From: Eledone cirrhosa
Taxonomy: Eukaryota
Reading direction: 5' to 3'
Assembly (NCBI GenBank): GCA_964016885.1
Contig: OZ024740.1
Coordinates: forward strand, 164,424,001 to 164,488,000
DNA length: 64,000 nucleotides
Part shown: positions 36,401 to 43,837 of the stretch, one piece after another
Numbering within the stretch: the stretch's first letter is position 1
Layout of the letters: the number at the start of each line of letters is the position of its first letter
Notes under the pieces: generated by a model
What the model was told of the DNA's origin: nothing
The model's database searches: none
Seen by the model: only the letters and a program-made list of their open reading frames with translations
Program-made: the position numbers and the translations under genes

Positions 36401-39071
36401 ATAGTATGTCTTCAGAATAAAGGCACAGTATAAATAGTATGTCTTGAAATATATCACTGCAACATTCTATAAAAATCAATGACGATATATTCCTCTTTCT
36501 TTGTATAACCTCCATATCACGGTAAACTATGTTTTTTATCAACAGAATTAGCCTTTCTACAGATTGCACTGTATATTATTTTATCAGAGACATAATGCTT
36601 CGTGTAAATATAGTATAGTGATGGCATTTTCGGACTACCTTGTTTATCTATGTTACACTCAATCTGAAACTCTATAACAACATAACCATGCATGGTCTTC
36701 TAATGATATGCAAAATTCCTTGCATCTGCAGTTTTAATGTGGTAGCGTATTGCAACCTCTGTGAGAGTCATCAGTCAGAGAATACGTTTTTTGGAGATCT
36801 CTTCTAGCTTTCATGATTTTATCAGTCACATCTACATAGATTTGATTCCTGGATGTATAATTTGACGCTTGTTGACAACTAGATGATGTGACATTTAAAT
36901 GTTATTTCAATCGATATTAACCCTCTACTAACTAGTCTTCGTTTTAGAGATTTATGTAAAGGCAGTCAATTCCATTATCGATGTGGAAATGTCTGGTAGT
37001 AGGTAATAGCTTTCAGATTTTAAGGTCAATGGCTCTGACCTCTTTTTGTCTAAGTCGAGTAGCACCAATGCCTATAAGAACATTGTTGCAGCGAAAGGGT
37101 TAGTCACTAATTTATTGAATTCAGAAATGTTTTAGGACCATATTACTTGTTATAAGTCTCCTCAGAAGATATATCTTTACTGATAATTAAGTACCTGTAA
37201 CATTCCTTGTAAAGATATCGCTGAAATAGTAAGATATTTCTTTAAGTTTTCCTTCGTGGAACGTTTATTTTGGCCTATAAAAATGTCGACACACGATCAA
37301 TATTATTTTCATACTATTCATATTATCGAAATATGTTCTGTGCCGATGTTCGTATTTCACAAGAACTGTGAACTAACTACATACTCTTCAAATTTACACC
37401 CTAAAATTCAAGAGATTTCAAGTAAAAACATGTATAAACAGCATCAAAGAGAGTCTGCTTCTTTGAAATATATCTCTGAGATATTTTATCTCATCAAATA
37501 CAATATTATTGCCTTTTGTACTTAACATCAATGTAATGGTTCAGAATAAAGTCAGATTATCTTTGACTCTAATTAAGCTGTGTGACTAGCAGCATCAAGC
37601 ATTACTGAATGTGGAATAGAAATGAATGCGTTCTTGTAATGAAAGCTCTCTTATGCCGGGGAAGCACTGATTTGTTATTTCGAAGGTGCTTAGCTTCTTT
37701 CTTTTTCGCTGCTTGTTCAGCTGCGATGATAGTATTACTATTACAGTGATCCTGGGGGAATAGGTTCAGACAAGTCATATACATTTTAAACACTATATTC
37801 TGCCATGAAATTATCCAGTGGCACTTCGCAATGTAGATACCATTGTTGTTTCGGTATTAGATATACATGTACCGGTGAGCCTGCAATATTTACATCAGCA
37901 GTGAGATGGTGAAAATCAGTTTATTTTGTACAAGTATTCGACAATAAAGTTTATTTCAATTGTTATGAAATTTATTTTCACCACAGTCTCAGGAGTATAG
38001 CCATTGATATTGTATGAAGGTACAATGTTTTGTTTTTCCGCGGATTTCTTCTAGTTACAAGGAAGCATGGTTTAAACACCTTGTCGTCTCTCCAAAGATT
38101 CCTCCAGAATATATGTTATCTTCTTGAGTCGCTAAACATGTTATTGTTTATTTCTTATGTATGCATTTTAATGAAATAATTTTAATATTTTCCTTCTGAT
38201 GCATGATATTCTCGTTAATAGCTTTTAATGACTGATTGAGTGTGATTAATTTACACCTAAATCTTTTTATTTTACTATCTCTAAAATTTTTTACATTTTT
38301 GCTGGTGAGATGGATAAGGAAAGCAATGGAGTTAACGTCATTTTTAGATTTTTCAAGATTCCTTTTGTTTCACATATTCTTAAACTTGTATTTGAATCGA
38401 TGGTGGAAAAAGGTAAAATGAAGACACGTGACAAAATATATACATAAGAATATGAACAATGTGAGTACAGTGGAGATGAATACGTCAAATGGGAAGAGAA
38501 GGAATGTAAATTTTCAGGCTAAACCCCGTATCGAAATAGAGCAAGAATACGAAATAAGAAAAAGTTTAGGAACGATACTAACGTGAAGAACAGATGTGGT
38601 TTGAATGGCTACATGCATATATATACACAGAAATGTGAACATAAATTGTCTCTGCTTAGAATAGTTAACCATATTTGCATACAGCTTGGCAGAGAAAAAA
38701 GCTATAAGAGATTTACCATGTTCTCAACAGGAACCTACGTAATTTGCTTTGGTTTCTTAGAGATAAATTATGGCATTTACCGTACTAGATACAACCAGAG
38801 AAAATATTTTACATACTCCCAGCAGGTATAAACAGTATTCTCAGTAGGTAAATTGTAGCAATTACTATATCAGAAAAATAGTTTATTAAACGTTTATCAT
38901 GTTCTTGTTGCCAGAATATATATATATATATATATTCATTAGTTAAGCAAAACAAGATCACAAATTCACAAGGAAGACGTTATTTAAAGAGCGTCAACAT
39001 AGTTGCAGTTTAATGTAATGAATAAGGAGTGTAATTATAATTTAATGTAAGGAATAATAATAATAATGTCC

Positions 39072-39193
39072 GTTTACAATTGTTTCGCTACTCCATATAA
39101 TGTTTCTGGATCAATTGATTATTAGATAGTTATTGATCTGGTTCAGAGGAAGATAAGTAACTTAATTAATGTTATGGATCAGCTCTTCAGAAC
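39072..39193 (-). ncRNA. Hammerhead with ~97-nt stem II domain (3' pseudo-LTR)
   Basis: GTT-CTGAAGA-GCTG.TCCATAA...TTATATGGA.TAGC-GAAA-CAATTG-TA-AAC. Confidence 0.8.
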
Positions 39194-39605
39194 TTCAAAT
39201 GAGATAATGAAAATATTGATAAAGATAAGATAGAATAAGAAATATAAAATAAAGTACAGTAAGATGGTTACGTGATTGTAAGGTTACATAGATTGGTATT
39301 TCACGAAAGGGGTCCTGGATATCTCAAGTGTCTTCTATAAACAAGCATTACGCTTCTGTCGAGGCTATATTGAGCAAGATCTGCCTATGCATAGCAAGAT
39401 GGCCACTTTAGGAAATTTACCTTACTAATTAGAGACGGGTTTCAATGGAGGTGACTCCTTGAAAAGTTAAATTCATAAGTAATTTATAACTAAGAAGTGC
39501 AAATGACCTTAAATGAGAGACAATGTAGGGGAGGTAACTTATAATTATCTAAGTCTGGGTTAAATATTTAACCTGCTAGCTATATGTAATGGCGAGATTT
39601 GATGA

Positions 39606-42697: not shown

Positions 42698-42721
42698 AAG
42701 TAAGGAATAATAATAATGTCC

Positions 42722-42843
42722 GTTTACAATTGTTTCGCTACTCCATATAATGTTTCAGGATCAATTGATTATTAGATCGTTATTGATCTGGTTCAGAGGA
42801 AGATAAGTGACTTAATTAAAGTTATGGACTAGCTCTTCAGAAC
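42722..42843 (-). ncRNA. Hammerhead with ~97-nt stem II domain (5' pseudo-LTR)
   Basis: Same motif 3650 bp away, with perfect GCTA/TAGC stem II base. Confidence 0.8.
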
Positions 42844-43837
42844 TTCAAATGAGATAATGAAAATATTGATGAAGATAAGATGGAATAAGAAATATACAAT
42901 AAAGTACAGTAAGATGGTTACCTGATTGTAAGGTTACATAGATTGGTATTTCACGAAAGGGGTCCTGGATATCTCAAGTGTCTGCTATAAACAAGCATTA
43001 CGCTTCTGTCGAGGCTATATTGAGCAAGATCTGCCTATGCATAGCAAGATGGCCACTTTAGGAAATTTACCTTACTAATTAGAGACGGGTTTCAATGGAG
43101 GTGACTCCTTGAAAAGTTAAATTCATAAGTAATTTATAACTAAGAAGTGCAAATGACCTTAAATGAGAGACAATGTAGGGGAGGTAACTTATAATTATCT
43201 AAGTCAGGGTTAAATATTTAACCTGCTAGCTATATGTAATGGCAAGATTTGATGACTATGTTGGGTCGAATATTCTGTTGGCGAAGGAATTTGCCCTACA
43301 ATGGTGACAGTTAAGAGTTACCTCGTTTCTGTCGTTAATAGGTTGTGGTTGTGACAGAGTTATGTAATAGGCCTCGGTAAGACAGAGATCACAACAGTTT
43401 CTCCGTCCATATATATATATATATATATATATATATATATATATATATATATATATATATATATATATATATGTGTGCGTGTGTGTGTGCGTGTGTGATT
43501 GTACGTGTGCATGTGAGCATGTGTGAGTATGTGTGTGTGCGTGCGTGAGCATGTGTGTATGCATGTGCCTGTGTCTGTGTCCGTATGCATGTATGTGTTA
43601 TATGCAATTAGATATGTATGCATATGTGTATATGAAGAAGGTTTTGTTTTAGAACTGTTGTATAAAATATAAACAATTTTGTTTTAATTTTATCATATCT
43701 TTATATAATTGATTTTCACATTTTCCAAAACCGTAATACAATAATATGTGAAACTTGGTTAAACTTTTAATGTGTGTTACTGTGTACCAGTGTGTCTGTG
43801 TGTGTATGAGTGTGTCAAATAACTATTGATTTAACAC

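Follow-up and report, generated by a model that had tools for sequence, protein, structure and literature searches.

Oversized stem II domains in the hammerhead motifs of a Hydra-type Penelope-like element from Eledone cirrhosa belong to a genome-wide class

Introduction

Can the hammerhead ribozyme of a retrotransposon carry a stem II almost 100 nt long, and what would such an arm do? The question is raised by a Penelope-like element (PLE) at positions 38933-43408 of a 64,000-nt stretch of Eledone cirrhosa DNA (assembly GCA_964016885.1, contig OZ024740.1, positions 164,424,001 to 164,488,000), referred to below as the window. The original prediction for this locus, made from the sequence alone, described an autonomous PLE whose two pseudo-long terminal repeats (pseudo-LTRs) each carry a hammerhead with an approximately 97-nt stem II, and proposed it as a candidate master lineage. 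That PLEs carry hammerheads, that these cut as dimers, that Hydra elements occur in Octopus and that reverse transcription initiates internally is already known; the role of the hammerheads in PLEs is treated as open (PMC8557442; PMC11167929). We report here that the oversized stem II of this element does exist, is present throughout its family and exemplifies a class that occurs genome-wide and is missed by standard searches, cleavage itself being predicted from sequence.

Results

The window copy carries CUGANGA, GAAA and NUH around three helices, the defining marks of a type I hammerhead, in the following arrangement.

42722-42843, minus strand: upstream type I hammerhead motif, with a 3-bp stem I, CUGAAGA at 42840-42834, GAAA at 42736-42733, the palindrome CAAUUG and GUA at 42727-42725
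42737-42833, minus strand: 97-nt stem II domain of the upstream motif, with a basal helix, a 25-nt unconstrained 5' segment, an inner hairpin (CUG/CAG and GAUCAA/UUGAUC) and an A-rich linker
39072-39193, minus strand: downstream hammerhead motif, likewise with a 3-bp stem I and CAAUUG, with a 97-nt stem II domain at 39183-39087 and GUA at 39077-39075

As predicted, CUGAAGA cores were present in both of the 96%-identical repeats, starting at 42840 and 39190 and thus spaced 3650 nt apart. The interval from core to GAAA was 97 nt in both motifs, and among 66 aligned copies of the family nearly all had a stem II domain of 93-97 nt, despite 25-30% divergence of their 3' untranslated regions (UTRs). 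With a descriptor allowing a long stem II, the two element motifs were the sole matches within the window, and 30 shuffled windows gave 0.07 matches each, none of them with a long stem II of at least 9 bp. Stem III, formed by the CAAUUG palindrome, was predicted at +2.4 kcal/mol as a monomer and −6.4 kcal/mol as a dimer. Fold predictions of the family hammerheads contained no canonical loop-loop motif or pseudoknot that could provide a helix I-II tertiary contact.

The expectation that standard descriptors would overlook these motifs was also borne out. Rfam gave five matches at E ≤ 10 in 42400-43400, no hammerhead among them, and none among the 150 listed of 216 matches in the window. The descriptor published in 2014 limits stem II to 3-7 bp and its loop to 3-10 nt and requires CUGA (PMC4209133), and the window hammerheads are missed by it because their stem II exceeds the 7-bp and 10-nt limits, the arm being about four times longer than published searches permit. 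The exact pattern CUGANGA-G...C-GAAACNNNNGU was counted by stem II size; this and all other genome-wide counts cover the 3.0-Gb assembly. Domains of 34-63 nt gave 2,648 matches (control 23) and those of 93-122 nt gave 732 (control 26), against 149 (control 33) for 8-33 nt; a tighter pattern for 64-94 nt gave 69 (control 0). The resulting 3,380 long (34-63 or 93-122 nt) versus 149 short exact-core matches form a ratio bound to the pattern, because short motifs with an extra base after A9 or a different loop III, such as that at window position 13654, escape it and are undercounted. A palindromic loop III tetramer, of five kinds, was found at 47 of 58 sampled long-domain loci, where chance would give one in 16, and the long-domain loci split into at least six groups unrelated in sequence.

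The element bearing the two motifs is almost certainly a Hydra-type PLE with one type I hammerhead motif per pseudo-LTR. Its open reading frame (ORF) encodes a reverse transcriptase (RT) followed by a GIY-YIG endonuclease, and a short interspersed nuclear element (SINE) lies in its upstream tail.

43409-43500: (TA)n/(CA)n microsatellite at the 5' junction
42470-43408, minus strand: upstream pseudo-LTR and tail (GIY-YIG C-terminus, 3' UTR, hammerhead and SINE-bearing tail)
39606-42251, minus strand: broken Hydra-type RT and GIY-YIG ORF
38933-39758, minus strand: downstream pseudo-LTR and tail, terminating at the fixed 3' end of the family
38910-38932: (TA)n target at the 3' junction

The remnants of a single minus-strand ORF (42251-39606) run from the RT to a C-terminal GIY-YIG domain, the same order as in relatives with frames of up to 727 amino acids (aa); the ORF of the family comprises about 835 aa, including a long low-complexity stretch. 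The two minus-strand repeats (43408-42705 and 39758-39050) are 96% identical across 779 nt, and each starts inside the GIY-YIG domain and continues through a 3' UTR of about 416 nt and the ribozyme into the tail. A partial tandem of ORF end, 3' UTR and tail thus forms the pseudo-LTRs, and tandem and inverted relatives occur too. Family copies carry the Hydra motifs RWK (IRWKAF) and DKT (SDKTKN), which read VRYKAF and SDKTKN in the window copy, and a CxCx5C linker (CNCRYPNAC), CxxC (CDLC) and CxH (CQH/CHH) are present around the last endonuclease motifs. In family copies, the segment from YIG to the catalytic Arg contained no Cys/His cluster on inspection, and hence no internal CCHH zinc finger. 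The Hydra clade is defined by the marks RWK, DKT, CxCx5C, CxxC and CxH (Craig et al., 2021, PMC8557442); the motifs of the family copies match this definition and therefore support the identity of the element. Placement in the clade rests on these motifs, the RT tree containing Hydra-type rows only and the likeness to Hydra-1_Obim being judged by eye. Junctions with (TA)n at the window element and at family copies point to insertion into (TA)n. The protein had 398 relatives at E ≤ 1e-20, with Argonauta hians proteins among the 120 relatives listed; Pfam searches with it gave no match and the PDB was uninformative.

The window copy is dead, a fossil, contrary to the earlier view of a near-complete element of autonomous type. 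Relative to seven relatives, the ORF has four frameshifts, near 41806, 41689, 41407 and 40444, and further lesions are as follows.

41186-41197, minus strand: RT catalytic motif YRGD, which is YRDD in 17 of 20 relatives
39759-39914: 156-nt (CA)n(TA)n microsatellite inside the GIY-YIG domain
42584-42699: truncated high-copy SINE-like insertion, in the upstream tail only, between 18-nt direct repeats (42566-42583 and 42700-42717)

The 156-nt microsatellite replaces 24 ordinary bases seen in all 21 other loci with the junction (28 loci examined), and the endonuclease region has a net gain of 132 nt over seven relatives. Because the tract resembles the 5' flank and joins via a shared ATC, both junctions falling at the same element base, it probably arose from a template switch at insertion or from later conversion. 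The SINE presumably resembles an octopus SINE, and the DNA of the window is rich in microsatellites. The same SINE lies up to 330 nt past the ribozyme in 31 of 99 copies at many different junctions, indicating an insertion hot spot in the (AAT)n tract. The core spacing of 3650 nt, stated correctly by the original prediction, includes both the SINE and the microsatellite and is not the unit length it was taken for; the unit of a tandem relative measures 3359 nt.

The suggestion of a master lineage was not upheld. The CUGAAGA branch of the window has 59 exact genomic matches. The sister branch has the core CCGAUGA (U4C with A7U), and its CCGA pattern, slightly looser than the CUGAAGA pattern, gave 1,665 matches (control 22), of which 98 of the 100 listed belong to the family, for an estimate of about 1,650. 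This sister branch is the largest and youngest of the family (L129-L163, by our locus handles). In the 66-copy tree, the A7 and U7 branches separate, with median terminal branches of 0.035 and 0.020, and the window pseudo-LTR pair differs by 3.05%, compared with 0.16, 1.1, 2.0 and 4.2% in four sister-branch pairs. The window branch is minor and older than the CCGAUGA branch. It is in the sister branch that the longest frames occur, reaching 727 of about 835 aa. The proposed search for intact copies found no complete ORF in 20 relatives, mostly picked for long frames; with 150 of 38,266 candidates scored, intact copies may nonetheless exist. At least three further families have CCGA cores (L346, L361 and second motifs in L129 and L359).

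Copies of the family share a fixed internal 3' end: at 99 places with the end motif, the sequence passes into (AT)n in 44, into 5' UTR in 51 and otherwise in four. This end lies 96-164 nt (median 134, n = 25) past the cut site. Because the sequence continues past the cut site at 85 of 91 places and at none starts there (four join 3-12 nt upstream), we infer that the template for reverse transcription is uncut or re-ligated RNA. An internal start of reverse transcription, matching the fixed 3' end, has been described for a lizard PLE (PMC11167929).

The structure of the 97-nt domain was compared among copies. In most copies of the window's branch, the basal helix consists of 11 bp in which GCTGCTCCATA pairs with TATGGAGTAGC. 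The GCTA/TAGC helix of the original prediction exists in the upstream copy, to which it is confined and where it arose from private changes. The predicted probability of the basal helix was 0.82 for the upstream copy, compared with 0.08 for the downstream copy, where a private change damages it. Changes in the basal helix across copies mostly preserve pairing: one pair passes from A-U through G-U to G-C, two changes are one-sided and still paired, and one gives C-A. Whole stem II domains fold better than shuffles (median z −2.5, versus −0.2 for the upstream UTR; n = 25), an advantage partly due to how the matches were selected. Because its sequence barely varies, the inner GAUCA/UGAUC helix remains predicted rather than proven.

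Conservation was assessed by comparing changes shared by at least three copies with private changes among the 66 copies, on a tree built without the ribozyme. Shared changes per column amounted to 0.50 in the 3' UTR, 0.27 in the ORF tail, 0.08 in the core, 0.20 in the inner hairpin and linker and 0.60 in the 5' segment of the insert. The hammerhead core was constrained across lineages except at U4C and N7 (2 shared versus 39 private changes, compared with 187 versus 567 in the 3' UTR; p = 0.002), and G5, A6, G8, A9, GAAA, the palindrome and GUA had zero shared changes. The inner hairpin and linker ranked among the lowest 2-3% of 49-column windows, and the 3' half of the insert changed about as slowly as the ORF, which was not significant. 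The invariant bulge AACCA and the linker are unpaired in the model and slow to change. Analysis of 51 copies chosen independently of the ribozyme pattern gave the same conservation result. Conservation of the insert among relatives, on which the original prediction had been staked, was thus found for its length and its slow 3' half and did not extend to significance or covariation.

Two further structures were considered and rejected. An off-switch suggested by RNAalifold, in which the insert pairs with the 3' strand of stem II and GAA, had a probability of 0.00-0.02 in all 21 sequences, and its duplex was no better than with shuffled inserts. A possible second hammerhead nested in the insert (CUGAAC...GAAAC) is without G8 and was not seen in other families.

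Long stem II domains are not a property of this family only. Near Hydra-type ORFs in this genome, stem II measured 13, 20, 20, 31, 54, 59, 75, 78, 79, 85, 90, 96 and 97 nt, ribozymes being assigned to ORFs by position, which is firm only where two ribozymes flank an intact ORF. Families with a stem II of 13-31 nt are abundant and have full-length ORFs. In a quick RT tree of 43 rows (seven less than half filled; L360 mislabelled, its 31-nt ribozyme being a neighbour's), long domains were scattered over branches and unrelated in sequence, and a single master lineage of long-stem-II elements is therefore denied. A second coding Hydra-type family (L062-L088, L342) has a 95-97 nt stem II with a three-way junction and an unrelated sequence, and it also occurs as tandem units of 690-770 nt; two groups in all form tandem units of 660-770 nt. 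The architecture said to be shared with non-coding elements is shared in the long stem II and the (TA)n ends and not in the insert sequence, and one module common to coding and non-coding families was not found among the inserts compared.

A superfamily with a stem II of 58-61 nt (L089-L115, L242-L281; hereafter the 60-nt superfamily) provided evidence of a kept structure. Ten of its 15 pairs change on both sides, its covariation score was reached by none of 500 shuffles (a score per tool and not a probability), and its AGUC/UGAG internal loop is kept in 25-30 of 31 rows per position. A K-turn reading of this loop was rejected on inspection, as the 3-nt bulge expected before the tandem GA pairs is missing. 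The superfamily consists mostly of short copies with a (TA)n end, often with inverted 5' pieces, and a same-sense upstream Hydra-type ORF was found at one of 36 loci and at none of 20 more.

Outside cephalopods, 32 of 60 metagenome Hydra-type loci with enough 3' sequence (78 fetched) had a ribozyme, all with a stem II of 10-30 nt. The other 28 of the 60 had none, and a looser scan gave four short candidates and two poorly closing ones (53 and 56 nt). Viral contigs gave 69 pattern matches and no relative.

Several additional elements were observed. Other families in the genome use a U3-A8 core, and in the L351/L359 family a full-length ORF lies between two U3-A8 hammerheads 3565 nt apart, whose stem II measures 54 nt and whose stem III is long. 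The CAUG-palindrome family (L094-L117) has a stem II of 48-59 nt and forms retrozyme-like tandem units of about 660-720 nt. Within the window, another Hydra-type family is represented by a copy truncated at its 5' end (11294-13780, plus strand), whose short hammerhead at 13654 has a stem II of 13 nt; that family has 758-aa frames and a microsatellite-swollen 3' UTR. Non-coding hammerhead-like motifs with a stem II of 29-52 nt lie at 31235 (minus), 58667 (minus), 58839 (plus), 59365 (plus) and 61869 (plus); they adjoin inverted repeats and (TA)n ends, and their sequence is unrelated to the 97-nt insert. The GC-richer repeats at 20166-26432 and 46268-47241, 67-74% alike, are probably remnants of long interspersed nuclear elements, and short foldback elements with near-perfect inverted repeats lie between microsatellites at 10396-10717, 62654-62959 and 50180-50447.

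Discussion

Considering these results, we propose with moderate confidence that the 97-nt stem II is a family-specific folded extension that may aid folding or activation of the ribozyme. The reading draws support from the 60-nt superfamily, whose long stem II covaries around the kept AGUC/UGAG loop. Several results weigh against it. Constraint on the insert relative to private changes was not significant (p = 0.13 for the inner hairpin and linker, p = 0.36 for the whole insert), its 5' segment looks neutral, and covariation across 21 aligned copies was no better than in shuffles (179/500). The inner part of the insert alone folds weakly (z −0.4 to −1.9). Copies with deletions exist (L036, L041), which may have been dead on arrival, and the largest branch has U4C and, in its basal helix, a C-A mismatch, a possible sign of relaxed catalysis. 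Furthermore, no motif is common to all long-stem-II families.

Tolerated growth of stem II, as a free arm that expanded together with the non-coding DNA of these elements while selection kept only the base of the helix closed, is a serious though rather unlikely explanation. The distance from ORF to ribozyme is about 370-1430 nt in octopus families versus a median of 153 nt in metagenome loci (83-524, n = 31), and stem II sizes grade continuously over 13-97 nt, the sequences being unrelated and their branches scattered; the non-significant constraint test and the absent covariation in the window's family are also what such growth would give. However, the length and the 3' half of the insert persisted while the UTR diverged by 25-30%, the folding of whole domains surpasses that of shuffles, and the kept internal loop and covarying helices of the 60-nt superfamily need a function. 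The original prediction had instead suggested RT recognition, in which the insert would be the site where the RT-endonuclease protein recognizes its RNA and would have been borrowed by non-coding elements. Each family having its own insert is expected of a family-specific protein site, the AACCA bulge and the linker offer slowly changing unpaired bases in the model, and in uncut or circular RNA the domain would lie no more than about 150-250 nt from the start site. Nevertheless, we consider this role unlikely, for the fixed 3' end lies a median of 134 nt beyond the cut site, abundant families with a 13-31 nt stem II have full-length ORFs, and the inserts of the non-coding tandem units (660-770 nt) bear no relation to the 97-nt one; moreover, insertion of the lizard PLE needs RNA around the start site, and its ribozyme mutants still insert (PMC11167929).

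It is more doubtful still that the hammerhead no longer cuts in the window's family and is kept as a structural or sequence signal. Such a loss would fit the most numerous branch, which has CCGA for CUGA and a weakened basal helix, as well as the lack of copies starting at the cut site, and the lizard PLE had no reads ending at its cut site (PMC11167929). On the other hand, G5, A6, G8, A9, GAAA, the palindrome and GUA are free of shared changes; CCGA is reported to be without effect on cleavage in peach latent mosaic viroid (PMC9608096) and recurs in other natural hammerheads (10.64898/2026.09.16.752053); and other families in the genome use U3-A8, a known active core covariation (PMC3088659).

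With stem II as a folded extension, the most likely course in the active ancestor would be as follows, reconstructed largely by analogy with known PLEs. Transcription would start in the upstream repeat and read through the tandem repeats, and two ribozymes, paired through the CAAUUG palindrome, would act as a dimer that cuts tandem transcripts at GUA. The protein may help cleavage before it nicks (TA)n; for the hammerhead of a lizard PLE, cleavage requires the protein of that element (PMC11167929). Reverse transcription would begin internally, about 134 nt beyond the cut site, and proceed across it, on a template that may be uncut, re-ligated or circular. Most tentatively, the inner hairpin and A-rich linker might supply the helix I-II or protein contact that is lacking with a 3-bp stem I. 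A bolder and improbable extension is that octopus PLEs and their non-coding derivatives repeatedly made stem II a protein-switched regulatory domain of 50-100 nt controlling cutting and circularization, to which the most successful family added a CCGA core. If true, this would mean that a large group of natural hammerheads under protein control has been overlooked.

Published descriptors are blind to about 5,000 exact-core motifs spread across many families of this genome, and calls of 'no hammerhead' or 'half core' in other PLE families merit re-examination. These families naturally differ in their core (CUGA, CCGA, U3-A8), in coding state, some having full-length ORFs, and in the size of stem II (13-97 nt). 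Such differences provide ready constructs that could show whether these ribozymes cut, whether the protein activates them and what the extra arm does.

A literature search, which had most subscription papers outside its reach, returned no report of a 50-100 nt stem II in PLE hammerheads and, within the same limits, none of octopus hammerhead families; the available part of a 2026 octopus repeat annotation (PMC13282606) does not contain the words hammerhead or ribozyme. The element resembles the Hydra clade in its RT with a C-terminal GIY-YIG domain, (TA)n target, type I hammerhead near the 3' end and fixed terminus (PMC8557442). It differs in its unit of 3.36 kb, compared with mostly less than 3 kb in published Hydra elements, and in its loop II of about 75 nt, compared with 3-10 nt in 26 Hydra rows of File S2 (PMC8557442). 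The short hammerhead by which that clade is also characterized is thus lacking here; the ribozyme differs and the protein clade does not. Hydra-1_Obim of Octopus bimaculoides has a different ribozyme, with a 7-bp stem II and an 8-nt loop (PMC8557442), and three motifs of the window's family were not found in the available supplement of that paper, where line breaks can hide a match. In the same paper, Selaginella PLE-X1 hammerheads with a loop II of about 30-34 nt were flagged as deviating, and 'HHR_half_core' Naiads have core halves 35-50 nt apart in eight cases, one from Octopus (Craig et al., 2021, PMC8557442). These loops are shorter, belong to other clades and are not treated as a structured domain (PMC8557442).

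Minimal dimer-type PLE hammerheads (Cervera and de la Pena, 2014, PMC4209133) share with those described here the type I topology, the short helix I, the palindromic helix III, the G10.1-C11.1 pair and the presence of one motif per pseudo-LTR about 3 kb apart; unlike that descriptor set, the present motifs have stem II domains of 34-97 nt and often CCGA. Animal non-LTR retrozymes (PMC7229834; 10.64898/2026.07.22.740005) are non-coding tandems with type I hammerheads that are thought to derive from PLEs, comparable to the 660-770 nt units found here, and were detected with canonical and minimal descriptors; octopus or cephalopod is not mentioned in the available text of PMC7229834. The discontinuous mammalian Clec2 hammerhead likewise tolerates a very large insert in one arm and differs in being of type III, with the insert in helix I, and in being domesticated at a single locus (PMC6155905). 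In viroids and viroid-like RNAs, CCGA is a feature of single variants or small RNAs, whereas here a retrotransposon branch of about 1,650 matches has it as a fixed feature.

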